Of a DNA stretch of 64,000 nt, positions 23,753 through 64,000 are shown in pieces; position 1 is the stretch's first letter, and every line of letters starts with the position of its first letter. Under the pieces are notes generated by a model. It made no database searches. It was not told the DNA's origin and saw nothing but the letters and a program-made list of their open reading frames with translations. Origin of the DNA: Alphaproteobacteria bacterium (GTDB lineage Bacteria; Pseudomonadota; Alphaproteobacteria; VGEJ01); NCBI GenBank assembly GCA_965248765.1, contig CBDFKF010000003.1, positions 653,777 through 717,776 on the forward strand, given 5' to 3'. The position numbers were made by a program, and so were the translations under genes.

Positions 23753-23771
23753 GGTCCTTGACCTGTCTTAG

Positions 23772-25850: not shown

Positions 25851-25894
25851 TACACCCTCTCCCTCGTTCGATCGTTTTTGGCAGTGCGATCAGA

Positions 25895-27553: not shown

Positions 27554-27590
27554 TGCCAGCTCTCTGCTGGTCCGCGCGTTGCGCCGGTCC

Positions 27591-35833: not shown

Positions 35834-35949
35834 CTTCGTCCTCCCTTGTGGTTCAACGCTCTTTTTCGCGAGGATACTTGGGCGGGCCGAGTGCCGTCAA
35901 ACTCGACCGCGCCCCGATGGCAAGGAAGCTGTTGCTAGCCCGAGTAGCC

Positions 35950-35975
35950 GCGCACTATGTTTGCTAAATGTGCGC
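35950..35975. promoter_or_regulatory. imperfect inverted repeat gcgcac-N14-gtgcgc in the divergent promoter region between the family-5 SBP gene and the hyuB-hyuA-hyuB operon
   Basis: Read directly from the sequence. It lies ~45 bp upstream of the hyuB ATG at 36018. Confidence 0.3.
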
Positions 35976-36017
35976 GCCAACAATTTCCGGGCGAGTTACC
36001 AACACAGGACGGTAGGG

Positions 36018-37769: not shown

Positions 37770-37774
37770 GCGGC

Positions 37775-39820: not shown

Positions 39821-39824
39821 TCGG

Positions 39825-48808: not shown

Positions 48809-49893
48809 GGATCGGCCTCGAAGATCTGGAGGACTTTGCGCGCGGGGCAGCCTTCCTCGGCACCGGCGGTGGCGGCGATCCCTATATCGGACGGCTGACG
48901 GTGGAAAACGTGCTTCGAGCCGGACGCGACGTGGAGATAATTGACGCCGATGCCGTCCCCGACGATGCGCTCGTGATCCCCACCTGCATGATGGGAGCGC
49001 CGACCGTGTTCATCGAAAAGCTCCTGCGTGGCGACGAGACCAGCCGCGCTCTGCGCCGCCTCGAGGAACATCTGGGCCGGAAAGCGTTCGCCACCATGCC
49101 GATCGAGGCCGGCGGCCTCAATTCCACGATCCCGCTGGTCGTTGGCGCCCAGCTTGGTCTCCCGGTCGTCGATGCCGATGGCATGGGCCGCGCCTTCCCG
49201 GAGCTGCAGATGGTGACCTTCAGCGTCTACGGCATCCCGTGCTCGCCGCTGACCATCATCGACGAGCATGGCGAGTGCGTGATCGTCGAGGCGCGCAACA
49301 ACCACGCCTCCGAGTGGCTGGCGCGGGTGGTTTGCACGCGCATGGGCGGCGCCGCCCACGTCGCGCTCTATCCCATGAGTGGCGCTGACCTCAAACGCGC
49401 CGGCATTCGCGGCACCATGTCAGTGGCGCTCGAGATCGGCCGTGCGATCCGCCGCGCCCGCGAACAGGCGAACGATGTCTTCAATGCGCTGATCGAGTGC
49501 CTACGCGGCACTGATGGCTACGACTTCGCCAAGGTGATCTTCGACGGCAAGGTCGTCGATTTGCGGCGCGAGACGACGCGCGGCTGGGCCATCGGCTACG
49601 CGACCATCGAGGGCTTTGGTGAGTTCTCGGGCAATATGGAGATCACTTTTCGCAATGAGCACCTGATGGCCCGCCACGACGGGGTGGTTAAGGCGATCGT
49701 GCCGGATCTGATCTGCATCCTCGATCGCGAGACCGCCGAGCCCATCACCACCGAGGGGCTGCGCTATGGCCAGCGGGTGAAGGTGATGGGAGTGCGTGTG
49801 CCCGACATCATGCGCACGCGCGAGGCGATCGCGATTTTCGGGCCGGCGGGCTTTCAAATCGACGAGCCGTTCCGCCCTGTCGAGGAGCTCTGA
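48805..49893 (+). CDS. DUF917-family protein (partner of short HyuA-like proteins); GTG start overlapping the upstream stop
   Basis: About 362 aa, [31 protein letters not shown]... Assigned to DUF917 by recollection of the conserved HyuA-like/DUF917 gene pair. Confidence 0.55.
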
Positions 49894-50135: not shown

Positions 50136-51419
50136 CTACGAGATGTACACCGCGCTATCCCCAGCGGCCCGAATGTGCCCGGCCTTTACCGCATCCACCG
50201 TAACAGCCAGATCATTCAGGAACTCCTCGGCGACCGCGCCATGCGTATGATTGAGTAGCAATAACAACGCGGGCGGACGGCGCATCCGGCCCATGCGCCA
50301 GCCCTTGGCAAGCAAACCTTCCGCGACCGCGTTGATGTCCAGCTGCCCGGTGGATCCGATCGAGAAGTGACCGCCCTGCGGATCGCCGAGCACGCAAATT
50401 TCTTCGATCCCGCGGATGCCTTCGATGAACCGGCGCTTCGCTTTCAAGATCGCCCTGACGCGCTCGGCGTAGCCGTCAAACCCCAGATAGCGCATGACAG
50501 CCCAGGCCGACGCCACCGGACCGCCCGCGCGCGAGCCGACAAAGTTGAGCGTCGAGTACGCGCCGCCCGACCACGCATCGTGGTTGAACCGCTGATAGCG
50601 TTCGAGCGCGGCATCGCGCAACAGCAACGACGACGAGCCGCGATTGGCGTACCCGTACTTGTGCAGATCGACCGACATCGAGTTGACCGCGTCCACCCTG
50701 AAATCGAAGCATGGCACCGGCTCGCCCAGCGCCTCCACAAACGGCAGAAAGAAACCGCCGCCGCACGCATCGACGTGCATCCACAGGTCGTGCTCGGCGG
50801 CGATGGCGCCGAGCACCTCGATCGGATCCACCACCCCAATCGGGTAGGGCGGCGCGGAGCCCATGATCATCACCGTGTTCTCGTTGACGGCGGCCGCCAT
50901 CGCTGCGGGATCAGCCGCGTAGTCCGGTCCGACGGGGATGCGAACGACCTCGAGTCCAAGATGAGCCGCCGCCTTGCTGAACGCCGGGTGCGCCGATTCA
51001 GCGGCGAGTATTTCGGGCGCGGCGGCGCCGGGCTTGTGCTCTCTCGCCCAATCCCGCGCGGTTTTTACCGCCATCGTGATGCTTTCGGTGCCCCCGGTGG
51101 TAATGCTGCCGCCGGCCCCGGCCGGCGCGTTCAACATCTCCTTCACCATCGTCACGACCTCCGCTTCGAGGCGGGGCAGACTGGGGTAGAACGCAGGCCC
51201 GTAGATCTGATTGTCCCCCATGTAGAGGTTGTAGGCGTCGGCCGCGACGCTCACCACGTCATCGCCGGCGAAGTAGGAGGCCTGCAAGTTCTTCGGGTCG
51301 CGCCAATCGAGATCGCCTTTGCGCCCCGACACGAGCAGGTCTTGGATGTGCGAACGCGAGAGGCCCTCGCGGGCGAAGTGACGGTTGCTGATCTTGGCTT
51401 CGGACATGACTGGCTCCAT
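50136..51419 (-). CDS. PLP-dependent group-II decarboxylase (sphingosine-1-phosphate-lyase / glutamate-decarboxylase family)
   Basis: Starts at internal Met (MEPVMSEAKI) whose ATG overlaps the hyuB stop by 1 nt (TGATG). PLP-lysine motif SMSVDLHKYGYANRGSSSLLL resembles the S1P-lyase family DTHKYG. Confidence 0.75.
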   Translation of the reverse strand: MEPVMSEAKISNRHFAREGLSRSHIQDLLVSGRKGDLDWRDPKNLQASYFAGDDVVSVAADAYNLYMGDNQIYGPAFYPSLPRLEAEVVTMVKEMLNAPAGAGGSITTGGTESITMAVKTARDWAREHKPGAAAPEILAAESAHPAFSKAAAHLGLEVVRIPVGPDYAADPAAMAAAVNENTVMIMGSAPPYPIGVVDPIEVLGAIAAEHDLWMHVDACGGGFFLPFVEALGEPVPCFDFRVDAVNSMSVDLHKYGYANRGSSSLLLRDAALERYQRFNHDAWSGGAYSTLNFVGSRAGGPVASAWAVMRYLGFDGYAERVRAILKAKRRFIEGIRGIEEICVLGDPQGGHFSIGSTGQLDINAVAEGLLAKGWRMGRMRRPPALLLLLNHTHGAVAEEFLNDLAVTVDAVKAGHIRAAGDSAVYIS

Positions 51420-53203
51420 CAAGGGTGCGGCAACGTGCGGCGCCGGCGCGCGGCGGTCTCCGCTTGATCGACCTCGAGGCTGTCGGTCGCGACCTCGCCC
51501 GTGACGACGACGCCATAGACCTCGCGTGCCTGTTCGAGCGAGACGATGCGCTCCTCGATGTCGCGCTTGACCCGCGCCGGGTCGCGGGTCATCGGATCGC
51601 CGAAGCCGCCGCCGCCCTGATCGATCGCCCGGATCCACTCGCCCGGCTGCAGCGTCGTGTCAACATAGGCGGGCTGAGACTCCTCGCGGCCATCCGGGAG
51701 CACAAGGAGATTGGCGCCGAGATCGGCGTCGTGCCCGCCATGCACGCCGCGCGGCCGCTGTTCGACGATCCCATTGGTGATGTTGATCATCGTCATGGGA
51801 TCGGCGCGCGGGCCAAACACCACCTCGGTCGCCGGCCCGCCCCGAAAGCGCCCGGCACCCGCGGAACCCTCGATTACGCCGAGCGACCTGACCAGGATCG
51901 GAAAGCGCTGCTCGTCGATTTCCACGCTATCACGATAGAGAAGGCCCATGACCGGCATGAGGATCATCGAGACCATCCCGTCGGTCGTCGCAGTCGCCGG
52001 GCCGCCGCCGCCCATTAGATAGACCTGGCTGATATACGGCGCGCCGCCGCGCCGGGAATCGCGGCCCGAGACCACGCCGGCGCCGGCCGAGTTAACCCAA
52101 TTTCCCTGCGCGATGCCGAGGCCCTCGCCCAGCTTCGCGAAGGCGAGATGAACGAGGTTGATCAGGATATCGATCATCGGCGCCGTGGCGCACGAGCAGC
52201 TATGGGGAAATCGTGGGATGCCGGCGACACTGTTCTCTCGCAGTAGGACCCGGACGTGCCGGAAGGTCCCGGAGTTGTAGGGCACGTCCTCGAGGCAATT
52301 GAACACGCCCTGGGCCGCCGCCATGGTGGCCGTCGCCTCGGTCAGGTTCATGCCGGCCTCGACACAGTCGATATTGTCGCGCAGATCGATGGTGATCTCG
52401 CCGGCCTCGGCGTCGACCTCCAGGGTCACCGTAATCGGGATGCCGTCGGGCAGGAAAGGCTCGACCGGATCGTGTCCTCCGGCGACGGTGACGCGACCGC
52501 TCACCAGCTTCTTGATCGCCGTGACCGTGCGCCGCTCGGTGTAATCGAACCAGGCGTCGACGAAGCGCTGTACCGTCTCCATCCCGTGCGCGGCGATGAA
52601 CGCCTTGAGCCGTTGCTCGCCGATGCGCGCCGCGCTGATCGCTGCCAGGTGATCGCCGTACCATTGCTCGGGTACGCGGATGCGGCGCCGGCACATGCGG
52701 ATGATGTCGTCGACCTCGCGATAGTCGCGCTGCACCTGGACGCATGGGAAGATCAGGGCACCCTCCTCATAGACGTCCTTGGCCGGCGCAAAGTAGGTAG
52801 TCGGCACGCTGTTGCCGATGTCCGCCTGATGGCAGGTCGCGATCACGGTGAAGACGTGGACGCCGTCGTGGAACATTGGCACGAGGACGGCGTGGTCGGC
52901 CGGGTGGGTACCGCCGTCATAGGGATCGTTGTGCAGGAAGGCGTCGCCCTCTTTCGGGTTCGGCTGGAGGCGCGTCAGCGCGCGGGCCTGCAGTGTCGCC
53001 CCGTAGATATGGATTGGCACGCCCTCTGCGGCCGCGACCAGCTCGCCCTCGCGCGTCACGATAGAGCACGACATATCGCGCGCCATGCCGATCACCGAGG
53101 AGCGCGCGGTGCGGACGATCGTGTCCGTCATCTCGCGGACGATCGCTTCCATCCGGTTGGCCATGATCGCGAGCTGGATCGGATCGTAGTCGATTCGGCT
53201 CAT
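51419..53203 (-). CDS. hyuB: HyuB paralog 6 (start at internal Met MSRIDYDPIQ)
   Basis: 594 aa. QGGGGFGDP. Same subfamily as the pseudogene at 4814..6606. Confidence 0.9.
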   Translation of the reverse strand: MSRIDYDPIQLAIMANRMEAIVREMTDTIVRTARSSVIGMARDMSCSIVTREGELVAAAEGVPIHIYGATLQARALTRLQPNPKEGDAFLHNDPYDGGTHPADHAVLVPMFHDGVHVFTVIATCHQADIGNSVPTTYFAPAKDVYEEGALIFPCVQVQRDYREVDDIIRMCRRRIRVPEQWYGDHLAAISAARIGEQRLKAFIAAHGMETVQRFVDAWFDYTERRTVTAIKKLVSGRVTVAGGHDPVEPFLPDGIPITVTLEVDAEAGEITIDLRDNIDCVEAGMNLTEATATMAAAQGVFNCLEDVPYNSGTFRHVRVLLRENSVAGIPRFPHSCSCATAPMIDILINLVHLAFAKLGEGLGIAQGNWVNSAGAGVVSGRDSRRGGAPYISQVYLMGGGGPATATTDGMVSMILMPVMGLLYRDSVEIDEQRFPILVRSLGVIEGSAGAGRFRGGPATEVVFGPRADPMTMINITNGIVEQRPRGVHGGHDADLGANLLVLPDGREESQPAYVDTTLQPGEWIRAIDQGGGGFGDPMTRDPARVKRDIEERIVSLEQAREVYGVVVTGEVATDSLEVDQAETAARRRRTLPHP

Positions 53204-55275
53204 GCGCCAGTCTCGATGAGATAATTGCCGAGCACGGTCCGCGCCGCGCACGCGCCGGGATAGACCACGATGGTCGTGGTGGGTTCCTCAATGATCGCGG
53301 GGCCGGCCACGGTCATCCCGGAGCCAAGGTCGGCGCCGAGATAGATTGGCGTCTCGGCCTCGCCCTGCGGTTCGAAATAGGCCCGCGCGAGACGGTCCGA
53401 ACGCGGAAAGCTCGCGCCACACGAGGTCTCCGGGGCCATGACCGGCTTGTCGCGCAGCGCCGTCAGACGCACCCGCCAATTAATGCATTCAACCACGCCG
53501 CCGACCTCGCGCACCGCGTAGAGCCGCTCGTGGGTCCGGTGGAAGGCCTCGACCAGCGCGGCGAGATCATCCGCCGTTTCGATGCTCGTGCCGATCAAGG
53601 GCACCTCGATCTCCCATTGCTGATTGAGGTAGCGCGCCTCGACGAAGTAGTCGGTGCGCTGGTCGGTCACGCCGCGCGCCCGAAGCCCCGCCCCAAAGGC
53701 CTCACCCTGGGCGCGAAGCTGCCGCAGCACCGTGGCCACGGCTTCATAGTCGAAATCGGCCGAGTGGGCGTACTGGCTGGCGGAATACTCGGTGACAATG
53801 TCGGAATATTGCGCGCCGCACGCGCTCAGACCGCCTGCGGTGCGCGGCAGCAACACGCGGGCGCAGCCGAGCGCGCGAGCGATCGGCACGATCGTTAGGC
53901 CGGCCGCGCCGCCGCCGGCGACCAAAACGCTCTCGCGTGGATCCACGCCGTCGTTGACCGTGATCGCCTCTATCGCCTCGATCATCAGCTCGCCCGCGAG
54001 CAGCAGAATGCCGGACGCCGTCTCCTCGACGGTCTTGCCCATGGCGTCCGCGAGCGAAACGATGGCCCGGCCCGCGGCCGCAACGTCGAGCGGCATGCGC
54101 CCGCCGAGGAAATGTGCCGCATCAATGTAGCCGAGCACCAGAGCGGCGTCGGTCACCGTCGGCGCCGCGCCGCCCCGGCCGTAGGCCGCAGGCCCCGGCA
54201 CCGCCCCCGCCGATTGCGGTCCGACGCGCAACATGCCGCCCGAATCGAGCCAGGCGATCGAGCCGCCGCCCGAGCCGACGCTCCTGACGTCCACGGTTGC
54301 CATGCCGAGATTGTGCCCGACCCACTCCCCGAGCAGCCAGCTCTCGCGCGTGTACTTGACGAGCCCGGCGCGCACCAGGCTCACGTCGAAGGTGGTGCCG
54401 CCGGTATCGACGACGATGATGTCGCCGCCGAGCCCCTCGGCTTCGGCATAGGCCTTGCCAGCGACGGGCGCCATCGCCGGCCCTGACTTCACGGTATAGA
54501 CCGGCCGGGCGATCGCGTCGGCCGCGTGCAGCAGGCCGCCGGACGACACGCTCACCATCATCTCGCCCGAGAAACCGCCGGCGGCTAGATCGTCATGCAG
54601 CGTGCGCAGGTGCGCCTGCATCAGCGGTTTCAGCGAAGCATCGATCGTGGTTGAGGAGGCGCGCGGATACTCCCTGACCACGGGGTTGAGCGCGGATGAG
54701 AGGGTGTAGGGGATGTCCGGCAGAAGCGCTTCGATCAGCGCGCCGACGCGCCGCTCGTGCGCGTCGTTGACGATCGACCAGAGCAGACAGACCGCGATCG
54801 TTTCGATCCCCATCGCCGGCAAGTCGCGCAAGACGGCGCGCACGGCTTGCTCGTCGAGCGCGCGTTCGATCCCGCCCTCGGCGTTGATGCGTTCTGGGAC
54901 CTCGAACGTAAGCCGCCGCGGCACGTAGGGTGGCGGATTCTCCACATCGACCCGAAACGGATGATGCTTGCCGCCCTGCCTATAGAGCAGGATGTTGGGA
55001 AAGCCTTCCGTCGTGAGAAAGGCTGTCTTGGCGACTTTGCCCTCGACGATCGCATTGGCCGCCCGCGTCGTCGCGTAGATCAGAATGCCGGCCTCGCGCA
55101 GGAGGTCGTCGGGATCGCGCCGCAGTTCCGCTGCGGCATTGGCAAGCGCCGCGTACAACCCCTCGAAAGAGCGCTCGGGCGTGGTCAGCGCCTTGCCGAG
55201 GATGAGTCGGTCGTCGGCATCAGCCACGACAACGTCCGTGAAGGTCCCGCCGACATCGACAGCTATGCGAAGCAT
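53200..55275 (-). CDS. hyuA: HyuA 3
   Basis: 691 aa. MLRIAVDVGGTFTDVV... VDTGGTTFDVSL. Stop overlaps the hyuB start (ATGA). Confidence 0.9.
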   Translation of the reverse strand: MLRIAVDVGGTFTDVVVADADDRLILGKALTTPERSFEGLYAALANAAAELRRDPDDLLREAGILIYATTRAANAIVEGKVAKTAFLTTEGFPNILLYRQGGKHHPFRVDVENPPPYVPRRLTFEVPERINAEGGIERALDEQAVRAVLRDLPAMGIETIAVCLLWSIVNDAHERRVGALIEALLPDIPYTLSSALNPVVREYPRASSTTIDASLKPLMQAHLRTLHDDLAAGGFSGEMMVSVSSGGLLHAADAIARPVYTVKSGPAMAPVAGKAYAEAEGLGGDIIVVDTGGTTFDVSLVRAGLVKYTRESWLLGEWVGHNLGMATVDVRSVGSGGGSIAWLDSGGMLRVGPQSAGAVPGPAAYGRGGAAPTVTDAALVLGYIDAAHFLGGRMPLDVAAAGRAIVSLADAMGKTVEETASGILLLAGELMIEAIEAITVNDGVDPRESVLVAGGGAAGLTIVPIARALGCARVLLPRTAGGLSACGAQYSDIVTEYSASQYAHSADFDYEAVATVLRQLRAQGEAFGAGLRARGVTDQRTDYFVEARYLNQQWEIEVPLIGTSIETADDLAALVEAFHRTHERLYAVREVGGVVECINWRVRLTALRDKPVMAPETSCGASFPRSDRLARAYFEPQGEAETPIYLGADLGSGMTVAGPAIIEEPTTTIVVYPGACAARTVLGNYLIETGA

Positions 55276-55341
55276 GCGGGGCTCCCCCAGTTCCTTGGGG
55301 CAGTCTAGCGTCCCGTGCGGGAAACACTAAGATTGTGTCGG

Positions 55342-57186
55342 ATGCTGCCACCCGGAAAATATCGTGAAGAAAAACGACAGGTCTTGAAGGAGATCTTCGG
55401 TTTCGACGATTTCCGTCCCGGGCAGGAGCAGGCGGTGGATGCACTGCTGGCTGGGCGAAACGTGCTGGCAGTCATGCCAACGGGGTCTGGCAAGTCGCTC
55501 TGCTTTCAGGTGCCGGCGCTGGTCGGCGGCGGGATCACCATCGTCGTCTCGCCGCTGGTGGCTCTCATGCACGATCAGGTGGCGGCGTTGCGTCTCGCCG
55601 AGGTCGCTGCGGATACCATTAACTCTTCACGCGGCCGGGACGACAACGTTGCGGCATGGCGGCGCACCACCTCCGGCGAGTTGCGGCTTCTCTATATGTC
55701 GCCCGAGCGGTTGATGACCGAACAGATGTTGGCGGCGCTGAGCCGGCTCGACGTCCGCCTGATCGCGATCGATGAGGCCCACTGCATTTCGCAATGGGGT
55801 CCCGCGTTCCGCCCGGAATACCAAGACCTCTCACGCCTGCGGGGGATCTTCCCCGGTATTCCCATCGCCGCCCTGACGGCAACAGCCGACGAGGTCACCC
55901 GCGAGGACATCGCGGCGCAGCTATTCGCGGGCCATGCCGAGACGATCGTCCTCGGCTTCGACCGCCCGAACATCAAGCTTGCGGTGGAGATGAAGCGCGA
56001 CTGGAGATCCCAGATGCTCTCGTTCGTCCAACGGCATAGCGGCGAGAGCGGAATCGTCTATTGCCTGTCGCGGAAAAAAACCGAGGAAACCGCCGCCTTG
56101 CTCAGCGAGAAAGGGGTCTTGGCCCTGCCGTATCACGCCGGTATGGACAAGGCGGCGCGCGATACCAACCAGAACGCCTTCATGACCGAGCCAGGCGTCG
56201 TGATCGTGGCGACGATCGCCTTCGGCATGGGGATCGACAAGTCCGACGTCCGCTTCGTCTTCCACGCCGACCTGCCCGCCAGTATCGAGGCGTATTACCA
56301 GGAGATCGGCCGCGCCGGCCGCGACGACCAACCGGCCGAGGCGCACATGCTGTTCGGGCTGGGCGACATCCGCATGCGGCGGATGTTCATCGAGCAGGAA
56401 GAGGCGGGCGTAGAGCGCAAGCGTCGCGAGCATCGGCGTCTCGACGCTCTGCTCGGCTATTGCGAGTCCCCGGCCTGCCGCCGCCGCGCCCTGCTCGCCT
56501 ATTTCGGGGAAAGGATCGAGCCGTGCGGGAACTGCGACGTCTGCCTCGACCCCGTCGAGATCGTGGACGGCACGCAAGAGGGGCAATGGGCTCTCTCGGC
56601 GGTTGATCGGACCGGGCAACGCTTCGGTGCCGCCCACATCATCGATGTCTTGCGGGGATCGCTGACAGAGAAGGTCGTCAAGGCCGGGCACGACCGCCTG
56701 GCCACCTTCGGTGCCGGCGCCGAACACAAGAAGGAGGGGTGGCGCTCCCTGATCCGCCAGCTTGTGGCCGCGGAATTTCTCCGCCTCGATGTGCAAGACT
56801 TTGGCGGCCTCGCGATCACCGACAAGGGCTGGATGCTATTGCAGGGAGAGGCGAGCTTCCTTTGTCGCCAGGAGACCATGCGCCCCGCTCCGCCCGCCCG
56901 CCGCAAGGCCCGAAGCGCGGAGGCCGCGGCGGAGCTGTCCCCGGCCCAGAGCGTGCTGTTTGGCAGGCTCAAGGAATTGCGCCTGCGCCTCGCCAGCGAG
57001 CGCGGCGTGCCGGCCTATGTCGTCTTTTCAGACCGATCGCTCGCCGACATGGCCCGGCGGCGTCCGCGCAACGCCGCCGAATTTGCCGCCGTCAACGGGG
57101 TCGGCGCGGCCAAACTGAGGGATTTCGCATCGCCTTTCCTGGAGGCCATCGCCGCCGCCTCGGAGGGGCCGGCGGTTGACGAGTAG
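55342..57186 (+). CDS. recQ: ATP-dependent DNA helicase RecQ (start at 55315 or 55342)
   Basis: FGFDDFRPGQEQAVDALLAGRNVLAVMPTGSGKSLCFQ, DEAH box (IAIDEAHCISQWG), zinc-binding Cys cluster (CRRRALLAYFGE...CGNCDVC). C-terminal HRDC-like region. Confidence 0.9.
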   Translation: MLPPGKYREEKRQVLKEIFGFDDFRPGQEQAVDALLAGRNVLAVMPTGSGKSLCFQVPALVGGGITIVVSPLVALMHDQVAALRLAEVAADTINSSRGRDDNVAAWRRTTSGELRLLYMSPERLMTEQMLAALSRLDVRLIAIDEAHCISQWGPAFRPEYQDLSRLRGIFPGIPIAALTATADEVTREDIAAQLFAGHAETIVLGFDRPNIKLAVEMKRDWRSQMLSFVQRHSGESGIVYCLSRKKTEETAALLSEKGVLALPYHAGMDKAARDTNQNAFMTEPGVVIVATIAFGMGIDKSDVRFVFHADLPASIEAYYQEIGRAGRDDQPAEAHMLFGLGDIRMRRMFIEQEEAGVERKRREHRRLDALLGYCESPACRRRALLAYFGERIEPCGNCDVCLDPVEIVDGTQEGQWALSAVDRTGQRFGAAHIIDVLRGSLTEKVVKAGHDRLATFGAGAEHKKEGWRSLIRQLVAAEFLRLDVQDFGGLAITDKGWMLLQGEASFLCRQETMRPAPPARRKARSAEAAAELSPAQSVLFGRLKELRLRLASERGVPAYVVFSDRSLADMARRRPRNAAEFAAVNGVGAAKLRDFASPFLEAIAAASEGPAVDE

Positions 57187-57275
57187 CGCACGTGTCCTGG
57201 AGGGCCGCCCACGGCATGCGCCAACTCATCGGTCAGGTCGGTTAGCCCTCGCGGCAGTCGCGCTCGACGACCCCG

Positions 57276-57548
57276 TCAACCGGTGACGATGTCGTTAAGG
57301 AACGGATCACCGGGCAAAGCAGTCTCGGTATCGAGCAACGCACCGCAGCCCGGACAGAAAAAGCGTCGCAGCAAGACCTGCTCACCCGCCGCGTAGCTCT
57401 CGCCGGCCGCCCCCCGCATCGGGCCCTCCTCCACGTGCGCGCCGGGCTTCCACGGCTCGCCCGCGCCGCCGAGCCTATGCTCGCAACCCGCGCACCGAAC
57501 CTCCGGGCCCGATGCGGCATCGCGGACTATGAGTGCAGTGTCGGCCAC
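57276..57548 (-). CDS. small Cys-rich zinc-ribbon protein resembling the acetone-carboxylase gamma subunit (C-terminal half)
   Basis: 90 aa. Two Cys pairs: VRCAGCEH and RRFFCPGCGALLDTETALPGDP. The second resembles AcxC REYFCPECGTLHDVEAP as recalled from memory. Lies 13 bp downstream of the preceding HyuB-like gene. Confidence 0.55.
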   Translation of the reverse strand: MADTALIVRDAASGPEVRCAGCEHRLGGAGEPWKPGAHVEEGPMRGAAGESYAAGEQVLLRRFFCPGCGALLDTETALPGDPFLNDIVTG

Positions 57549-57563
57549 ACGACGGCGTTGGGC

Positions 57564-59402
57564 CTACTCGGCCGCTGTGGCAGCGAGGCGGCTGGCTCTA
57601 ACCCGCTCGCGCGCCCTCTCGGTAGCCTTTTGGTCGACATCGCCAGATGGTCCTTCGAGAACCACGCCGTAGACCTGACGAGCGACCGCCTCTGAGACCA
57701 CGCCGCTTGAGCAATCCTCGCGTACGGCATCCGCTTCACGCTCGAGCGGGTCGCCATAGCCGCCGCCGCCGTTCCAGCGGTAGTAGAGCGCGTCCTCGCC
57801 CGCGAGCGGATAGACTCCCCACGCTACCGATTGCTGCTCACCGGCCATGTCCTCGAGCGCTTGGGTGAACGGGTTGACGTTGCGGCCGGCCTCCGAGGCC
57901 TCATTGTTGTGGACCCAGACATAGCTGTTGGGCGCACCCGGATAGCCACCGGCGAGCCCATCGCTCATCGGGAATTGCGAGCCCTTGCCGGAGATGACGA
58001 AGCGCAGGCCGTCATCCGGCGAATCGTGGGGCACGACCGCAATCTCGCCGCCGGTGCCGCCGCGATACCGGCCCGGCCCGCCCGAGTCTTTCATGCGTCG
58101 ACGAAAGAGGTAGCGCACCGGAAACATCGCTTCGGTGGTCTCGACGTTGGCCATTCGCGTGATCGGGTTGGGCAGCTCACCGCCGACGTCGATCCCGTCG
58201 GCGAACGATCGGGCGCCGCCAGAGCCGGCAAAGGTCTCGGTCATCATGCCGATCGATTCGCTCCCTTTCTGGTTGCGTCCAAAGAGGAAGAGAGCGACGT
58301 GGTTGGCATGCCAGACGGCGCTTGTTTCGTGGCGATATTTGTCGCTGGCAGCAAGCATCTTGCCGATCGTCGTCACCGCCAGGTTGTTGACCGACTGGAT
58401 GGTGCCGACCGTTGCCGCCGAGACCGGCGCGGGCCGCCGGCAGTTCACGATGCTGCCCTCAGGCGCAATCATTTCGACCGGCCGCGTCAGCCCCTCATTC
58501 CAAGTGATGTCGTAGCAGAGCATCGGAAACAGCGGCGCGAAGATGCCGCCCCACGAGGCGAGACGGGTGCAGTTGAGACCATAGGGTGTTTCGGGGCTCG
58601 AGCCGGTGAGATCAAAAGTAAGTGAGTCTTCGGTCTTGGTCATTGCCATGTTCACACGGTAGACCTCGTCCTTGGCCTCCATGTACTGGCGCGCCTCCCA
58701 GCGTCCGTCCGGCAACTCCCGCAAGCGCCGCCGCAACAGCGCCTCCGATTGATCGATCAGCGTCCGGCCCGCTTCATCGACGGCCGCCGCTCCGTACTTG
58801 TCGATCAGCGCCAGCATGCGGTCCTTGGCAACGTTGTTGCAGGCGATCATGGAGGCGAGGTCAAGCGCGACCATCTCGGGCGAGCGCACCATGTTGAGGA
58901 TCGTATCCATGACGTCCTCGCGCATCTCGCCGCGATCGATCAGCTTGATACCCGGCGAGCTGAAGCCCTCGGTGTAGATGTCCTCGGAATCCGGGCTGAA
59001 GCCACCCGGCGCCAGAGCGCCGATATCGTAGACATGGACGAATGAGGCGCTGAAGCAGACCAGCTGGCCGTCGTAGTGAATCGGCGAAACCAAATAGATG
59101 TCGGAGGTATGAAGCGCGGCTGTGTAGGGGTCATTCAGCAGGAACACATCGCCTTCGTTGATCTTGCCGTCGAAGCGGAGCAGCACGGCCTTGCAGGCCT
59201 CGGCGGCGGCCGTCAGGTGATGGAGGTAGCCGACACCCCCCATCAATAGGGTGCCATCAGTGCGATAGAGCGAGACCATAAGGTCGTGCCCCTCGTTGGT
59301 GATGGCACTGCCCGAGACGTGCTTTAGCGTAATCACCGCCTCCTCGATGATGCGATAGAGGCGGTGGCGAATGATCGAGAAGGTGATGGGGTCCACGGTC
59401 AC
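57564..59402 (-). CDS. HyuB-like protein 7 (divergent subfamily; acetone-carboxylase-alpha-like position in operon)
   Basis: 612 aa. MTVDPITFSIIRHRLYRII... LLNDPYTAALHTSD... NGGGGYGDP. Confidence 0.85.
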   Translation of the reverse strand: MTVDPITFSIIRHRLYRIIEEAVITLKHVSGSAITNEGHDLMVSLYRTDGTLLMGGVGYLHHLTAAAEACKAVLLRFDGKINEGDVFLLNDPYTAALHTSDIYLVSPIHYDGQLVCFSASFVHVYDIGALAPGGFSPDSEDIYTEGFSSPGIKLIDRGEMREDVMDTILNMVRSPEMVALDLASMIACNNVAKDRMLALIDKYGAAAVDEAGRTLIDQSEALLRRRLRELPDGRWEARQYMEAKDEVYRVNMAMTKTEDSLTFDLTGSSPETPYGLNCTRLASWGGIFAPLFPMLCYDITWNEGLTRPVEMIAPEGSIVNCRRPAPVSAATVGTIQSVNNLAVTTIGKMLAASDKYRHETSAVWHANHVALFLFGRNQKGSESIGMMTETFAGSGGARSFADGIDVGGELPNPITRMANVETTEAMFPVRYLFRRRMKDSGGPGRYRGGTGGEIAVVPHDSPDDGLRFVISGKGSQFPMSDGLAGGYPGAPNSYVWVHNNEASEAGRNVNPFTQALEDMAGEQQSVAWGVYPLAGEDALYYRWNGGGGYGDPLEREADAVREDCSSGVVSEAVARQVYGVVLEGPSGDVDQKATERARERVRASRLAATAAE

Positions 59403-59403
59403 C

Positions 59404-61512
59404 TCACGAGAATTCGATCACCATGTTGCGATGTGCATCCATCTGACCGTGCTGGTGATCCTGCACGACGATGGTGGTGATCGGGGTGTGAATAACGGCA
59501 GGGCCGGCGACAACGTTGCCTGGTTCCAGCCGCTCGAAATCGTAGATCTCGGCAGGCGCAAGTCCGCCGCGTGCTTCGACGAAAATCTCGCGCCGACCAA
59601 TGCTCGCGCGCTTGGGATCGGCGCCCCCGAGCGGCAGCGGCTCGAGCTCGGGACGGTCCATCAATCCGCGCGCGGTCAACCGGAACATGGTCATTTCCAT
59701 GCCAGCGCCGCGATAAGCCGAGCCCTTGCCGAACTTGCGCTGATAGAGCGCCTCGAAGTCGTCGATGAGCTTTTCGAGCCCCTTTGAATCGAGCGGCGTC
59801 GCGGCCCGCACGGGCGTCGTCACCTCATGCACTTGTTTGCCGTACCGGAGATCGACCGACCAATCGAGCCGTATGCGGTCAGTCGGAAACCCCTCCTCTT
59901 TGAGCTGCTCAAGGGCAACCGTCCGCATCGGGGCGTAAATCTCATTCAACTCGTCGGCCGGAGAAGGCACAGGCAGTGTCTTGGTGACGGAATACTCGTG
60001 AACGATATCCGCTGAAACCAGGCCGAAGGCGCTATACACCGCGGCCGAGTACGGAACGATCACCCGTTTCACGTTTAGTTCGGCACCGAAGGTCCCGCAC
60101 AGCAAGGGGCAGGTGCCGCCGAAGGCGTGCAGCACAAAATCGCGCGGATCAAGACCGCGCTCGACCGTGATCTCGTGAATCAGGTCGGCGATCTGAGCGG
60201 CTGCAACGCGGTAGATGCCGAACGCGGCCTCGTCCACCTCCATGCCAAGCGGCCCGGCGATGCGCTCGGCAAACGCGGCCGCCGCCGCCGCGCGGTCGAG
60301 GGTGATCGTGCCGCCGAGAAAGGTGGCTGGGTCCATGTACCCCACCAGCAACAATACATCGGTCAGCGTCGGCTCGACACCGCCGCGCCCATAGCAAACC
60401 GGTCCAGGACTGGCGCTGGCACTCTGCGGTCCGACCCGGGGTATGTTGGTGTGGGGGTCCAGAGCAACGATGCTGCCGCCGCCGGCGCCGATCGAAACCA
60501 CCTCGATCTTGGGAGCGATGTAGTGATACCGCGCAACCATCGGCTCGCGCGCGTACTCCATCTCGCCGCCCTGGATGACCCCGACCTTGAAGGTTGTGCC
60601 GCCCATGTCGGCGGCGATGATATCGCGATCGCCCATTTGGTCGCCGAGGAACTGACTGCCGATAACCCCGGCGGCCGGGCCACTCTCGATCATGCCGACC
60701 GCCCGGTCCGCGGCTTCCACCGCCGGCAGCAGACCGCCGTAGCCCTGCATCACGAGAAGCGGGCCTTTGTACCCTTCGGCCGCCAACAGCTCGCCGAGAT
60801 CGGTCAGATAATCGCGCGAGATGCGCCCGGCGTAGGCGTTGATGACCGTCGTCGAGGTCCGCTCGTACTCGCCGGGGACTGGCGCGATATCGCTCGACAG
60901 CGTGACATAGGCATCGGGCGCTAGACGGCCAACGATCTCGCGCACGGCGTGTTCGTGGGCCGTATTGTAGAAGGACCACAAAAAGCACACGGCGATGGCA
61001 TCGACACCCTTCGACTCGACCAGATGGCTGACCGCGGCCTCGACAGCCGGCACGTCAAGCTCCTTGAGCACCGCCCCCTTGTAGTCGACCCGCTCCGGGA
61101 CACCGCGAATACACCCGGTCTCGACCAGCGGTGGCGGGCGCTCGGTGGCGATCGGATGTTTGACACGATCCTCGGATAGGCCTGCCCAGCGGCCGTAGGC
61201 GCCCCGCGTGATCAAGAGGGTATCCTCGAACCCTTCGGTAGTAATCAGGCCGGTCTTGGCGCCTTCGCGCGTCAGGATCGCGTTGTCGACGACCGTCGAG
61301 CCGTGCGCGAAGAGAGAGGTGCGGGCGAGCACTTCGGCCAGCGTCGTTCCCATCGAGTCGGCCGCCGAGACGATCGAGTCGATGACGCCCTGGGCGAAAT
61401 TAGGCGGTGTGGAGAGCGCCTTACCGACGTGAAGCGGCTGGCCTGCGGCGAAGACGATAGTGTCGGTGCAGGTGCCGCCGACGTCGGTCGAGACGATAAA
61501 CGGTGATGCCAC
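59404..61512 (-). CDS. HyuA-like protein 4 (GTG start 1 nt after the upstream stop; the ORF-track start at 61638 overlaps the upstream gene)
   Basis: About 703 aa. VASPFIVSTDVGGTCTDTIV... ADMGGTTFKVGVI. Its stop is followed 1 nt later by the next start. Confidence 0.85.
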   Translation of the reverse strand: MASPFIVSTDVGGTCTDTIVFAAGQPLHVGKALSTPPNFAQGVIDSIVSAADSMGTTLAEVLARTSLFAHGSTVVDNAILTREGAKTGLITTEGFEDTLLITRGAYGRWAGLSEDRVKHPIATERPPPLVETGCIRGVPERVDYKGAVLKELDVPAVEAAVSHLVESKGVDAIAVCFLWSFYNTAHEHAVREIVGRLAPDAYVTLSSDIAPVPGEYERTSTTVINAYAGRISRDYLTDLGELLAAEGYKGPLLVMQGYGGLLPAVEAADRAVGMIESGPAAGVIGSQFLGDQMGDRDIIAADMGGTTFKVGVIQGGEMEYAREPMVARYHYIAPKIEVVSIGAGGGSIVALDPHTNIPRVGPQSASASPGPVCYGRGGVEPTLTDVLLLVGYMDPATFLGGTITLDRAAAAAAFAERIAGPLGMEVDEAAFGIYRVAAAQIADLIHEITVERGLDPRDFVLHAFGGTCPLLCGTFGAELNVKRVIVPYSAAVYSAFGLVSADIVHEYSVTKTLPVPSPADELNEIYAPMRTVALEQLKEEGFPTDRIRLDWSVDLRYGKQVHEVTTPVRAATPLDSKGLEKLIDDFEALYQRKFGKGSAYRGAGMEMTMFRLTARGLMDRPELEPLPLGGADPKRASIGRREIFVEARGGLAPAEIYDFERLEPGNVVAGPAVIHTPITTIVVQDHQHGQMDAHRNMVIEFS

Positions 61513-61513
61513 C

Positions 61514-63316
61514 TCAGGCGCGCGCGTGACGCGCTTTCTCGGTTGCCGCCTCGTCGATGGCCATGGCCTCGGTAATGATGACGCCGTAGTCCCGCTCGGC
61601 CGTGGCGACCGAGATGTAGCCGTCGAGAACGTTCTCAAGAACCAACTTCGGTTCGCGCTCTATTGGGTTTCCGTAGCCGCCGCCGCACGGTCCGACCTGG
61701 ATGATACGATCGCCTGCAGCGGCGGGTAGATGGGGGATCTTCGATGGGAGCTCGACCACGTCACCGTTGGCGCGTTTCAGGATGAGCGCGGCGTGGTAGC
61801 CATCCGCGCCGCCATCGAAGCCCCAGGGCGGATGTTCGTGGCCCTCGCCCTCGACCGAGAAACCGCCGTCCTCCAACCACTCTGCCTCGCGGATCGAACC
61901 AACCCCGCCGCGCCATTTACCGGGGGCGCAAGCATCGTAGCGAAGCTCGTATTGATGAACCCTCAGAGGCAGATGGGATTCGAGATCCTCGATGGGGTTG
62001 TTGCGGGTGTTGGTGAACAGAATATCGACGGCATCCATCCCGTCCTTGCCGTAACGCCCGCCGTAGCTCCCCTCGTGGATCTCCATGTGCACCCAGTGAG
62101 TCTCGCCGCGCAGACCGCTGAACGCGATGACCTCGAGATTGCCGACGCCCGCGCTGACCTGCGTGGGTACCGCTTCGGCCAATGCCTTCATCATGGTGCT
62201 GGCCATCTGAATGCCGGGGCAACAGCGGGCGATCGTCGGCGCGGGAAAGATCGGGTTCACCAAAGTGCCCCTGGGCGCGACGATGGTGATCGGTCTGGTA
62301 AGCCCCGCGTTCTGGGGAATCTTCCCGTGGATCGCTGAGTCGAGCAGGATCGAGCGCAGCGTCATCCACACGCCGCAGTCGACCGTGCCCTCGAGCGGCA
62401 TGTTGATAGGCCGATCGTCGACCTGCGGTGCGGTGCCGGTGAAATCAACGGTCAGCTCGCTGCCATCCACGGTGACGGTGACCTCAATGGGCAGATCGCG
62501 CCGCGCCGGATCGTCGCTGTCGAGATAGCCGTCGATCTTAGTTTTGGCGTTGTAGGAGCCATCGGGCAGCTTCTCGATCGCAGCCCGCATCATCCGCTCC
62601 GAGTAGTCCATCAGCTCCTCGGACGCGGCTTCCACCAGCTCCAGGCCATACTGCTCGATCAATGCAACGTAGCGCTCGGCACCGATGTGGCAGGCGGCGA
62701 TTTGCGCCTCCATGTCTCCCACCACCAGATCGGAAGCGCGTATGTTGTCACGCACCATGTGCCAAACGGCGATGTTCTTGACACCGCGCTCATAGACTTT
62801 GAGCGCGCGGAACTGCAGCCCCTCGGCGTACGCATCCATTGCATCGACTATGCCCGCGCTTCCAGGCGTGAGGGCACCGATGTCGAGATGGTGCGCCGCG
62901 GTGAACGAGAAGCCGGCAAGCTCGTCGCGATAGAAGACCGGCACCACGAAACCGACATCAGGCCCATGCGATGCGCCGGCATACGCGTCGTTGTGCATGA
63001 TCACATCGCCCGGTTCGATCGCCTCGCCGCGCTCATCCAGGATCCGCCGCAGTCCTCTGATATAGCCAGGCGCCGGACCGGACTGGAGCGGCGTGCTTTG
63101 CGGCGTTTCTGCGATCTGATGTCCGGCCGCATTGATCAGGGCGGCGCCGAAGTCCTCGGATTCGCGGATGATGCTCGAATGCGACATGCGCATCAGCTTG
63201 AAGCCCATCTCGATCGCGATGTTTTCGAGCGCGCCCTGGATGACGTTGGCGGTGACCGGATCGATTCGATTGGACCCCGGTTGGGCAGCCTTCTCCGATT
63301 CAGCAACCGACGTCAT
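61514..63316 (-). CDS. hyuB: HyuB paralog 8
   Basis: 600 aa. DPVTANVIQGALENI... HNDAYAGASHGPD... CGGGYGNPIEREP. Confidence 0.9.
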   Translation of the reverse strand: MTSVAESEKAAQPGSNRIDPVTANVIQGALENIAIEMGFKLMRMSHSSIIRESEDFGAALINAAGHQIAETPQSTPLQSGPAPGYIRGLRRILDERGEAIEPGDVIMHNDAYAGASHGPDVGFVVPVFYRDELAGFSFTAAHHLDIGALTPGSAGIVDAMDAYAEGLQFRALKVYERGVKNIAVWHMVRDNIRASDLVVGDMEAQIAACHIGAERYVALIEQYGLELVEAASEELMDYSERMMRAAIEKLPDGSYNAKTKIDGYLDSDDPARRDLPIEVTVTVDGSELTVDFTGTAPQVDDRPINMPLEGTVDCGVWMTLRSILLDSAIHGKIPQNAGLTRPITIVAPRGTLVNPIFPAPTIARCCPGIQMASTMMKALAEAVPTQVSAGVGNLEVIAFSGLRGETHWVHMEIHEGSYGGRYGKDGMDAVDILFTNTRNNPIEDLESHLPLRVHQYELRYDACAPGKWRGGVGSIREAEWLEDGGFSVEGEGHEHPPWGFDGGADGYHAALILKRANGDVVELPSKIPHLPAAAGDRIIQVGPCGGGYGNPIEREPKLVLENVLDGYISVATAERDYGVIITEAMAIDEAATEKARHARA

Positions 63317-63468
63317 CGCTATTTCCTTCCTGTGCCGGCGCAGCCAGCGCGCACACGAACATTAAGGAACCCGTGGCGAAACGCGTCAAGCCTCGCCGGC
63401 CCGGCACCAGTTGAATCGGTGCCGCCAGAGAGGCATGTTCGAGGCGGCCATCATTGAGGGCGGTCGCG

Positions 63469-64000
63469 ATGAACGCGCAACATACTTCGGCCAACAAGGC
63501 GAGACGCTTGCCATTGATTCCGGCGATTCTCCTGGTGACTGGAGGGATCGCCTATGGAAGCCTGTTTACGGCGAACAAGATCGCCATCGAGGCCGGCTTC
63601 CCGTTCATCAGCTACACCTTTTGGCAAGCTCTGGTCGCCGGTATCGCACTATTTGCATACGCTCTCGTTAGATCCGATCTGCCCAGGCTGACGTTTCGCC
63701 ACCTGCGGCAATATGTGCTGACTAGCACGCTGGGTTTGGTCTTCCCCGTGCTCGTGCTCACCTTCATCGCGGGCAAGCTGCCGGCCGGTGTCGTCACGCT
63801 GATCATCGCGCTGGCGCCGCCGCTGACGTACGTGTTCGCGTTTCTGTTGCGTCTCGAGAAGTTTCGCTGGCCAAGCATTTTGGGGGTTGTGTTCGGCTTC
63901 GCCGGAATCTTGTTGATTGTGCTGCCTGAGGAAAGCCTGCCCTCACCCGATATGGCGATCTGGATTGTCGTCGCGCTGCTCGTCCCGCTGTCGCTAGCCA
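63469..64000 (+). CDS. DMT-superfamily (EamA-like) transporter, 3'-partial at window edge (not in the supplied ORF track because no stop occurs before the window ends)
   Basis: Own translation from the ATG at ~63469: MNAQHTSANKARRLPLIPAILLVTGGIAYGSLFTANKIAIEAGFPFISYTFWQALVAGIALFAYALV... A continuous run of TM helices with no stop to base 64000. Confidence 0.7.
   Translation, partial: MNAQHTSANKARRLPLIPAILLVTGGIAYGSLFTANKIAIEAGFPFISYTFWQALVAGIALFAYALVRSDLPRLTFRHLRQYVLTSTLGLVFPVLVLTFIAGKLPAGVVTLIIALAPPLTYVFAFLLRLEKFRWPSILGVVFGFAGILLIVLPEESLPSPDMAIWIVVALLVPLSLA

Follow-up and report, generated by a model that had tools for sequence, protein, structure and literature searches.

The conserved unit at this locus consists of three genes, HyuA-HyuB-gamma, and not of the four that lie together on the minus strand of the window, the 64,000-nucleotide stretch of DNA analyzed here. 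We consider it probable that HyuA4, HyuB7 and the gamma protein form a conserved alpha-beta-gamma ATP-dependent enzyme, most likely a hydrolase, and that the fourth gene, HyuB8, is a passenger. A sequence-only reading of the window had described all four genes as one module, and its open reading frames were found tightly packed as described (Table 1).

Table 1. Features of the four-gene locus, in window positions.
Feature	Position	Strand	Details
HyuB8	61514-63316	minus	600 aa, ATG start, GGAAGGA upstream
HyuA4	59404-61512	minus	702 aa, GTG start
HyuB7	57564-59402	minus	612 aa, GTG start
gamma (small Cys-rich ORF)	57276-57548	minus	90 aa, GTG start
HyuB8/module breakpoint	61514..61520	minus	homology to the solo-HyuB8 locus L172 stops here
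Intergenic region, HyuB8 to EamA-family gene	63317..63468		152 bp; presumed operon promoter region; from L001-L005 gene calls and sequence
EamA-family gene, divergent	63469 to window end	plus	

The locus reads B-A-B-gamma and is flanked by RecQ and the EamA-family gene. Spacers within the run measure 1, 1 and 15 nt; of the distances given earlier, the 1 nt between HyuB8 and HyuA4 stands, but HyuA4 and HyuB7 are also separated by a 1-nt spacer, and HyuB7 and gamma by 15 rather than 13 nt. The two short junctions are identical (TGAgGTG). Public gene calls start HyuB7 at a GTG two codons later, yielding 610 aa. Gene calls of the near-identical contigs L001-L005 carry the same arrangement, with transposase genes flanking the region in L002 and L003. 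Five independent assemblies, like the window itself, have the four genes intact with all catalytic residues kept. A scan of the intergenic region upstream of HyuB8 for the sigma-70 consensus gave no match. Across the window we counted 8 HyuB and 4 HyuA genes and a single gamma-like ORF; a search of the window for an isochorismatase homologue found none.

Sequence and modeled fold identify the small ORF as a genuine, minimal gamma subunit of 90 aa, a four-Cys zinc ribbon of the PF08882 family. The resemblance to acetone carboxylase gamma noted earlier proved significant, since the ORF matches PF08882 (Acetone_carb_G, Pfam) with E = 4.9e-9 and 36.9 bits against a gathering score of 21, over profile positions 17-101 of 113. 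The two Cys pairs that had been pointed out, C19/C22 and C65/C68, are invariant in 33 homologues together with W33 and K34, and align with C22/C25 and C75/C78 of Apc gamma. Given its significant gamma similarity and invariant Cys motifs, the ORF is not spurious. An AF2 model (pLDDT 86.7) returned only Acx gamma (TMq 0.69-0.74, four chains) and Apc gamma (0.66) as Foldseek matches at E <= 0.0014, the next match lying at E = 0.5. The alignment to Acx gamma is limited to residues ~71-146 of the latter. Gamma has been reported absent from all Hyd complexes; the characterized gamma-containing enzymes are all carboxylases, and gamma is treated as a hallmark of ketone carboxylases (PMC5214803).

HyuB7 is predicted to be the HyuB-type catalytic (metal-site) subunit and the partner of gamma. 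It contains a Hydantoinase_B domain (Pfam, E = 4.6e-125), and its ligand tetrad D40/H98/D101/H123, invariant in 76 sequences, matches the CapB metal ligands D41/H99/D102/H124, whereas the first metal ligand in Acx is a glutamate (Glu89, the gating ligand) (PMC8453981). HyuB7 scores mostly 720-930 bits against its own orthologues and 353-573 against the most distant clade members, compared with 185 against Apc beta (HyuB8, 99) and 124 against Acx alpha (HyuB8, 60). HyuA4 is the predicted HyuA-type ATP-binding (ASKHA) subunit, with Hydant_A_N, Hydantoinase_A and Hydant_A_C all found (Pfam). Its ATP-site residues, whose retention the sequence-only reading had left as a question, are kept: the 66 sequences compared agree without exception on D10, T14, D17, K31, D302, G305 and T306. 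Two further residues of HyuA4 are clade signatures, E276 and K309, the latter replaced by Asp in Cap, Apc, NMH and Acx. Within the PDB, both HyuA4 (383 bits) and gamma (23 bits) match Apc best by sequence. The module therefore has what defines the superfamily, a HyuA-type ASKHA protein with ATP residues and a HyuB-type protein with an Asp/His/Asp/His site.

The clade of this module is found in 80 loci from other species (79 in the gene-order count). The A-B-gamma order, earlier likened to acxABC, is seen in the window and kept in 64 of the 79 loci, and 7 more carry HyuB-gamma without an adjacent HyuA. Immediately upstream of gamma, 71 other loci carry a HyuB7 orthologue (57-72% identity); the HyuA4 orthologues that precede this pair in 64 are mostly 60-76% identical, falling to 41-46% in the most distant loci. 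HyuB and gamma are naturally fused in five cases (L070, L076, L082 and two in L086) from Gammaproteobacteria and a haloarchaeon, and a profile search returned HyuB-gamma fusion proteins of 686-734 aa. In none of the other-species module loci is HyuA preceded by a HyuB8-type gene. Together with a HyuB8-HyuB7 identity of 29%, this removes HyuB8 from the module in which it had been placed as a paralogue.

Only one gene is consistently linked to the module. At least 55 of the 71 HyuB7-gamma loci encode an isochorismatase-family amidohydrolase that resembles RutB, BiuH and N-carbamoylsarcosine amidase; the gene is usually just downstream (beginning within 1.5 kb on the same strand in 50), and is missing from ~20% of orthologous loci. 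In 17 loci there are genes for Bmp/PnrA-type ABC transporters. Upstream of the module, 18 loci have a gene for beta-keto-acid cleavage (BKACE), which is the immediate neighbor in L049/L011 and L020; with the NCBIfam model for 3,5-dioxohexanoate:acetyl-CoA acetone transferase, it reaches 550 bits (cut-off 430). This linkage is limited to one related group of MAGs, and opposite-strand genes mostly intervene. No CoA ligase, thiolase or AcxR-type activator was consistently linked among the module loci.

Neighbor-joining trees of both large subunits, built with sampled gamma-less hydrolases, Acx and Apc, place the HyuA-HyuB-gamma module in a deep lineage of its own that, on sequence grounds, is neither Acx nor Apc. 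The clade is monophyletic with 97% support in the HyuB tree, and its eight-taxon core with 100% in the HyuA tree; the gamma-less hydrolases sampled lie apart from it (89% in the HyuB tree, 84% in the HyuA tree), while Acx and Apc group separately from it (89% and 100%). Closeness to the carboxylases does not follow, as the trees are unrooted. The placement of the two HyuB paralogues, also raised earlier, is thereby settled in part, at the level of neighbor-joining: HyuB7 sits in the separate module clade and HyuB8 groups with NMH (100% bootstrap). Equivalog cut-offs of NCBIfam were missed for caprolactamase (CapA 501.6 vs 1000, CapB 255.6 vs 1000) and for Apc (ApcA 245 vs 1250, ApcB 21.5 vs 250, ApcC 400 vs 1500, ApcD 197 vs 1500); similarity to Acx was judged from PDB scores, the NCBIfam scan having returned no acetone-carboxylase model. 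With these scores and with sizes that differ from Acx, the previous assignment to an uncharacterized member of the ATP-dependent carboxylase/hydrolase class, and not to acetone carboxylase, holds.

By analogy with solved relatives, HyuA4 would phosphorylate a carbonyl substrate in its enol or imidate form (or bicarbonate) at the expense of ATP. The intermediate activated in this way would move on to HyuB7 and its Asp-His-Asp-His metal site, and gamma would act as a zinc-ribbon clamp on HyuB7. At HyuB7 a cyclic amide or ureide would most likely be hydrolyzed with opening of the ring, and the isochorismatase-family amidohydrolase that most other genomes co-encode, and that the locus here lacks, would receive the product. 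ATP-dependent N-methylhydantoinase works with the isochorismatase-fold N-carbamoylsarcosine amidase, a pairing that parallels the isochorismatase-family gene linked to the module elsewhere. From this pairing, and from an Asp in place of the Acx Glu as first metal ligand, our analysis favors a ring-opening amidohydrolase over a carboxylase. Some observations count against a hydrolase: the characterized gamma-containing enzymes are all carboxylases, the clade is not nested among the hydrolases in the trees, and the upstream BKACE in 18 loci would suit a carboxylase product.

The same observations feed the alternative that survives best, in which the module is a new ATP-dependent carboxylase of a ketone, beta-diketone or amide, a third branch beside Acx and Apc, with HyuB8 still a passenger. 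HyuB7 also outscores HyuB8 against Apc beta and Acx alpha, and CapAB itself requires bicarbonate, which makes the line between the two chemistries a thin one. We nevertheless regard a carboxylase as doubtful, because the sole consistently linked gene encodes an amidohydrolase while the CoA ligase, thiolase and AcxR-type activator are not consistently linked, the large subunits are hydantoinase-sized with Asp as first metal ligand, the BKACE linkage is confined to one MAG group and mostly interrupted, and the tree position is unrooted.

HyuB8 itself is best described, from its sequence, as an intact orphan HyuB of N-methylhydantoinase-like lineage, predicted to be co-transcribed with the module without being a conserved member of it. 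It has a Hydantoinase_B domain (Pfam) and closely matches the beta half of NMH (7hk5) at E = 5.6e-138 (phmmer, 464 bits). Its orthologues follow a HyuA of their own, 31-37% identical to HyuA4. Solitary copies exist in L172, L100 and L101, solo orthologues adjoining a CN_hydrolase gene; neither the window nor the surroundings of these solo copies contain a cognate HyuA. Nucleotide homology to L172 (87%) is confined to window positions 61520-63404 and breaks off with the stop codon of HyuB8, the L172 protein being 6 aa longer; between the two copies dN/dS is 0.09 and the metal tetrad is retained. Among the loci compared, the HyuB8-HyuA4-HyuB7-gamma arrangement occurs in this species only, where a rearrangement at the HyuB8 stop codon would have put HyuB8 at the head of the operon. 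Strain L173, 99.3% identical, has HyuB8 only as a 5'-truncated copy.

HyuB8 is intact although it has no cognate HyuA in cis, which would fit a second role for HyuA4. HyuA4 may be a shared ATP-dependent activator for two unrelated partners, the gamma-clamped HyuB7 and the orphan HyuB8. We hold this to be unlikely; if true, one kinase-like subunit would feed two different metal-site subunits, which would explain the higher counts of HyuB than HyuA, the purifying selection on solo HyuB8 and the HyuB7-gamma pairs without an adjacent HyuA. Sharing in trans is plausible given that excess and those 7 unaccompanied pairs. Whether or not HyuA4 is shared, the alpha-beta-gamma(-isochorismatase) clade would be a third functional class of the family. 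A related proposal, that all four proteins make one Apc-like hetero-complex or that HyuA4 serves HyuB8 as a functional second beta beside HyuB7-gamma, draws in addition on the identical junctions, and we judge its chances to be slim. The arrangement is restricted to this species, HyuA4 is distant from the HyuA type paired with HyuB8 orthologues, the L172 solo copy persists without the module, and the L173 copy is truncated. The echo of the Apc core heard in the sequence-only reading is also inverted, as Apc duplicates its HyuA-like and not its HyuB-like subunit, and the locus does the reverse.

Our preferred reading, an alpha-beta-gamma enzyme with HyuB8 as passenger, has two observations counting against it in this species: its own copy lacks the isochorismatase partner, and strain L173 carries a HyuB7 frameshift and a 34-aa in-frame deletion in gamma that removes the first CxxC. 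These L173 lesions suggest that selection on the module may be relaxed in this species, although some may be long-read assembly errors, because RecQ is likewise split in that strain. Taken further, the locus would be a decaying remnant with no current function, its isochorismatase partner lost and an orphan HyuB left alongside. The truncated HyuB8 of L173, the transposases in L002 and L003 and a HyuB8 split into 438 and 180 aa in another assembly would fit. Decay is nonetheless improbable in our view, given that the window and the five independent assemblies keep four intact genes and every catalytic residue, and that the isochorismatase gene is missing from a fifth or so of orthologous loci as well. 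A bona fide acetone or acetophenone carboxylase, which the A-B-gamma order and the PF08882 match might suggest, is scarcely credible and was rejected on the Apc equivalog scores, the 124 bits of HyuB7 against Acx alpha, the sizes and the separate clade.

In this clade the alpha and beta subunits are of hydantoinase size, gamma is reduced to 90 aa and sometimes fused to beta, and an amidohydrolase gene is usually linked. Characterizing the enzyme would establish a third family branch, be it a new carboxylase or the first ATP-dependent amidohydrolase with a gamma, and the module offers the simplest system for learning the role of gamma. A further question, posed by the orphan and selectively maintained HyuB8, is whether a HyuB can act without a HyuA ATPase, or share one.

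Among known systems, AcxABC ((alpha-beta-gamma)2, PDB 5M45/5SVB) has the same order of HyuA-like, HyuB-like and gamma genes as the module and in common with it the four-Cys zinc-ribbon gamma fold, a HyuA-like ATP site and a HyuB-like His/Asp/His metal site. As had been noticed before, HyuB7 and gamma are shorter than their Acx counterparts (612 vs 776 aa and 90 vs 168 aa), the module gamma lacking the N-terminal half. Similarity is low (22 bits between the gammas), Glu89 of Acx stands where HyuB7 has Asp40, and the module's neighbors, unlike those of Acx, are amidohydrolase and transporter genes. Apc resembles the module in its Asp-His-Asp-His site, and its gamma binds the HyuB-like subunit, as predicted for gamma and HyuB7; none of the genes described at this locus was identified as an Apc-type epsilon subunit. 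Apc has two HyuA-like subunits (alpha/alpha'; 5l9w_B and 5l9w_b both match HyuA4) and one HyuB-like subunit against one HyuA and two HyuB here, a gene order of apcABCDE and a gamma of 129 aa. CapAB (6YRA), N-methylhydantoinase (7HK5) and 5-oxoprolinase come close in subunit sizes and A-then-B order and share the ATP and metal residues. The Hyd alpha-beta hydrolases, however, have no gamma, whereas in the module gamma is a conserved neighbor of HyuB and in some loci fused to it, and residue 309 is Lys in HyuA4 but Asp in all four solved relatives.

Four open reading frames lie on the minus strand between positions 57276 and 63316, exactly as an earlier sequence-only reading had described them: HyuB8, HyuA4, HyuB7 and a small 90-aa ORF. 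Pfam searches placed Hydantoinase_B in HyuB7 and HyuB8 (HyuB-type, the metal-site subunit) and three Hydantoinase_A domains in HyuA4 (HyuA-type, the ATP-binding ASKHA subunit). The HyuB8/HyuA4 and HyuA4/HyuB7 junctions share the same 1-nt spacer (TGA-g-GTG), and the spacer ahead of the small ORF measures 15 nt rather than the 13 bp previously given. Promoter and terminator consensus scans over 56900-64000 gave no signal above shuffled expectation.

Coordinates of the features discussed; L-numbers denote contigs from other assemblies, all other positions refer to the window
Feature	Coordinates	Strand	Remarks
HyuB8	61514-63316	-	600 aa
HyuA4	59404-61512	-	702 aa, GTG start
K309 and E276 codons	inside HyuA4, 59404-61512	-	clade-signature residues
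HyuB7	57564-59402	-	612 aa; public gene calls begin two codons later (610 aa)
gamma ORF	57276-57548	-	90 aa
Lesions of HyuB8, HyuB7 and gamma	L173:8030-13134
HyuB-gamma fusion	L070:594-2783		MAG labelled Gammaproteobacteria or Enterobacteriaceae
HyuB-gamma fusion	L082:1983-4424		MAG labelled Gammaproteobacteria or Enterobacteriaceae
HyuB-gamma fusion	L076:9548-10231		MAG labelled Gammaproteobacteria or Enterobacteriaceae
HyuB-gamma fusions, two	L086:1735-3999 and 8051-10243		Halobacteriales archaeon MAG
Solitary HyuB8-type genes	L172:7913-10821; L100 ~7075-9809; L101 ~7028-9782		no HyuA in flanks
CN_hydrolase past right end of window	L001:2342-3108; L002-L005:2324/2495-3108		upstream of EamA-family gene and HyuB8
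HyuB-HyuB-HyuA-HyuB cluster	22076-29255	-
HyuB-HyuA-HyuB cluster	35742-41582	+
Aldehyde ferredoxin oxidoreductase	42912-44849	-	AFOR_N and AFOR_C; tungsten-enzyme family
Half-length HyuA-like protein	47252-48808	+	518 aa; Hydant_A_N and Hydantoinase_A, no C-terminal domain; gene calls on near-identical L001
S-Me-THD_N/C family protein	48751-49893	+	after half-length HyuA; gene calls on near-identical L001
PLP-dependent decarboxylase	50136-51638	-	directly after HyuA-HyuB pair
HyuA-HyuB cluster	51419-55275	-

The 90-aa ORF is a real gamma (zinc-ribbon small) subunit. It matched PF08882 (Acetone_carb_G) at 36.9 bits against a gathering score of 21 bits, and its sole PDB sequence matches were the small subunit of acetophenone carboxylase (Apc; 5l9w_C) and the gamma subunit of acetone carboxylase (Acx; 5svb_C and 5m45_C). 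Among 5.8 billion proteins searched, 80 clusters matched at 46–82% identity, nearly all of 86–116 aa, with three shorter fragments of 53–74 aa. Among 33 aligned homologues C19, C22, C65, C68, W33 and K34 were invariant and the C-terminal motif CPGCGALLDTETALPGDPFL mostly so, and the two cysteine pairs align with the metal ligands of Apc gamma, Cys22/25/75/78 (PMC5214803). The AlphaFold2 model (pLDDT 86.7) resembled Acx gamma (TMq 0.69–0.74) and Apc gamma (0.66), the next Foldseek match having E = 0.5. With the gamma profile, 891 clusters were recovered at E <= 1e-3 from 1.84 billion representative proteins, including many proteins of ~90–105 aa and several of 686–734 aa with gamma at their C-terminus; a profile built from homologues of the ORF detected no second gamma-like ORF in the whole window. 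Given the similarity to PF08882 and to both carboxylase gammas together with the invariant cysteines, the concern that the ORF might be spurious can be set aside.

When one genome from each of 185,579 species was scanned with the gamma alignment, 80 loci were recovered, mostly in Alphaproteobacteria MAGs. Other hosts were Pandoraea terrae, Salinihabitans flavidus, Ruixingdingia sedimenti and Rhodoferax, and further loci came from Gammaproteobacteria, Binatia, Acidimicrobiia and one Halobacteriales archaeon. ORFs of each locus were classified against the four window proteins, with 79 loci scorable. A HyuA4 orthologue, then a HyuB7 orthologue, then gamma were present in 64/79 loci (identities mostly 60–76% for HyuA4 and 57–72% for HyuB7, with 41–46% and 39–43%, respectively, in the same four most distant loci), and HyuB7-gamma occurred without an adjacent HyuA in 7. 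None of the 79 carried a HyuB8-type gene upstream of HyuA. The conserved unit is HyuA-HyuB-gamma (hereafter the module), three genes and not the four previously proposed. HyuB and gamma form a single reading frame in L070, L076, L082 and twice in L086; these natural fusions (Rosetta-stone evidence) indicate that gamma is the dedicated partner of the HyuB7-type HyuB. This partnership accords with Apc, where gamma envelops the beta subunit (PMC5214803).

HyuB8, on the other hand, appears to be an import into the locus. It is 29% identical to HyuB7 but closely resembles the beta portion of N-methylhydantoinase (NMH) 7HK5, a fused protein (E = 5.6e-138), with which it clusters at 100% bootstrap in the HyuB neighbor-joining tree. 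A metagenome scan with HyuB8 gave 80 loci, in which almost all orthologues (59–73% identity) are directly preceded by their own HyuA, only 31–37% identical to HyuA4, and in no case does a HyuA4/HyuB7/gamma set come next. The window yielded no cognate HyuA for HyuB8: its HyuAs are all 31–38% identical to the type with which HyuB8 orthologues pair. In another genome (L172), HyuB8 is 91% identical to the window copy in amino acids and 87% in nucleotides, is 6 aa longer, and is solitary, with a divergent CN_hydrolase gene on one side and a convergent penicillin-amidase gene on the other. Nucleotide homology between the two is confined to 61520–63404 and ends at the HyuB8 stop codon, so the HyuB8/HyuA4 junction was probably made by rearrangement at this stop. 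Since it is full length, keeps its metal tetrad and shows a dN/dS of 0.09 against L172, HyuB8 is likely still a working gene. The four-gene HyuB8-HyuA4-HyuB7-gamma arrangement is a lineage-specific chimera.

Contigs L100 and L101 also carry a solo HyuB8 with a divergent CN_hydrolase, as in L172. The CN_hydrolase genes beside the three solo copies are 70–71% identical to one another, with HyuB8 just downstream, and these solo HyuB genes are kept by purifying selection even though no HyuA accompanies them in cis. The CN_hydrolase past the right end of the window, only 38–43% identical to those beside solo HyuB8 genes, is split into two overlapping gene calls in each of the five near-identical contigs (L001–L005); this reflects either a pseudogene with a frameshift or an assembly error that recurs.

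All four genes are intact in these five metagenome contigs. A sister strain of the same species (L173) is 99.3% identical to the window in nucleotides over 55000–62367, with homology ending inside HyuB8, which is 5'-truncated to residues ~315–600 behind a TPP-enzyme gene. HyuB7 is frameshifted there, and gamma (P0053) has an in-frame 34-aa deletion removing the first CxxC pair and the WK motif. Since RecQ is also split in L173, part of these lesions may be assembly error; some relaxed selection on the locus in this species is conceivable.

The module belongs to the hydantoinase/ketone-carboxylase superfamily and would work like its members. Residues D40/H98/D101/H123 of HyuB7, invariant in 76 sequences, occupy the D41/H99/D102/H124 positions of the caprolactamase subunit CapB, whose metal-site alanine mutants, given as D41A, H99A, D101A and H124A, abolish activity (PMC8453981). 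The first metal ligand is Asp, like in Cap and Apc, whereas Acx has Glu. As for the ATP site of HyuA4, which the sequence-only reading had singled out for scrutiny, D10, T14, D17, K31, D302, G305 and T306 correspond to CapA D11, T15, D18, K32, D295, G298 and T299; all seven are kept and are invariant in 66 sequences. The HyuA4 clade has two signature residues, each in 65/66 HyuA4-type sequences: Lys309, which is Asp in CapA (D302), Apc alpha (D315), NMH and Acx beta, and Glu276, at the CapA N269 position. Both line the proposed substrate-phosphorylation pocket (PMC8453981).

Neighboring ORFs of 71 HyuB7-gamma loci were clustered and scanned with Pfam and NCBIfam. One partner was consistent, an isochorismatase-family cysteine hydrolase found in at least 55/71 loci, which among named proteins is most closely related to RutB, BiuH and N-carbamoylsarcosine amidase. 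In 50 loci this gene starts no more than 1.5 kb downstream in the same orientation, often 3–12 bp past gamma; no homologue is present in the window, and about 20% of orthologous loci likewise lack it. Cultured strains whose operon retains it include Pandoraea terrae LMG 30175 (L066), Salinihabitans flavidus DSM 27842 (L069) and Ruixingdingia sedimenti LG-4 (L075). The remaining neighbors were less consistent: an XRE-cupin regulator gene, Bmp/PnrA-type ABC transporter genes (17 loci) and, in some groups of loci, TRAP transporters, Rieske oxygenases and other genes. In an established pathway logic, an ATP-dependent N-methylhydantoinase acts first and an N-carbamoylsarcosine amidase of isochorismatase fold second, and for this reason we favor hydrolytic ring opening of a cyclic amide or ureide as the probable chemistry of the module. 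The main functional rival, that the module is a new carboxylase, we regard as possible though rather unlikely. A gene for a beta-keto-acid cleavage enzyme (BKACE) lies upstream of HyuA in 18 loci and scores 550 bits against the NCBIfam model for 3,5-dioxohexanoate:acetyl-CoA acetone transferase (cut-off 430); if functionally linked to the module, it would suggest a beta-keto acid as the product. We kept it only as weak evidence for a carboxylase because it is adjacent in 2 loci (L049/L011, 4009–4935, and L020), has opposite-strand genes in between elsewhere and comes from one related MAG group; the window has no BKACE homologue.

Across the whole window there are 8 HyuB and 4 HyuA genes. A conserved B-A-B architecture, which would give meaning to HyuB8-HyuA4-HyuB7, was considered and rejected, as the B copies within the other clusters are recent duplicates (64–67% identical). 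Where relatives of the 37775 HyuA occur elsewhere, the order is B-A or B-?-A and not B-A-B, so the extra B copies look lineage-specific. The aldehyde ferredoxin oxidoreductase gene has Hyu clusters on either side, and its surroundings (64% GC) otherwise look aerobic and are probably alphaproteobacterial. The HyuA-HyuB-PLP decarboxylase trio is also found on contigs L001, L003 and L173.

Neighbor-joining trees (200 bootstraps) combined PDB sequences, module orthologues, HyuB8-type loci and the other window paralogues. The module clade was monophyletic in the HyuB tree (97%), as was a core of eight module taxa in the HyuA tree (100%, down to 35% once the Acidimicrobiia sequence L087 was added). 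Acx and Apc clustered together (89% HyuB, 100% HyuA), and the sampled gamma-less hydrolases formed a clan excluding both the module and Acx + Apc (89% and 84%). The trees show the module as a deep lineage of its own rather than a branch nested among the sampled hydrolases; being unrooted, they do not imply closeness to the carboxylases. A single origin of gamma, or a single loss, is the parsimonious reading.

What the sequence-only reading had observed held, as did its gamma homologue; the proposed four-gene, Apc-like core did not. Apc has two HyuA-type subunits and one HyuB-type, since 5l9w_B (alpha) and 5l9w_b (alpha') both resemble HyuA, and 5l9w_A alone resembles HyuB. The locus, with one HyuA and two HyuB, shows the inverse duplication, and its extra HyuB is not conserved. 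NCBIfam equivalog cut-offs of CapA/B and ApcA-D were all missed by large margins, and the module fell outside Acx, Apc and Cap, as well as the Hyd type that lacks gamma, when membership in each was tested. We found in the literature neither a published description of a HyuA-HyuB-gamma module nor a characterized gamma-containing hydantoinase or HyuAB-isochorismatase system. Compared with these known systems, the module is best described as an alpha-beta enzyme of hydantoinase size that carries a minimal gamma. Its clade extends the family in a clean, testable way and lends itself well to the study of gamma.
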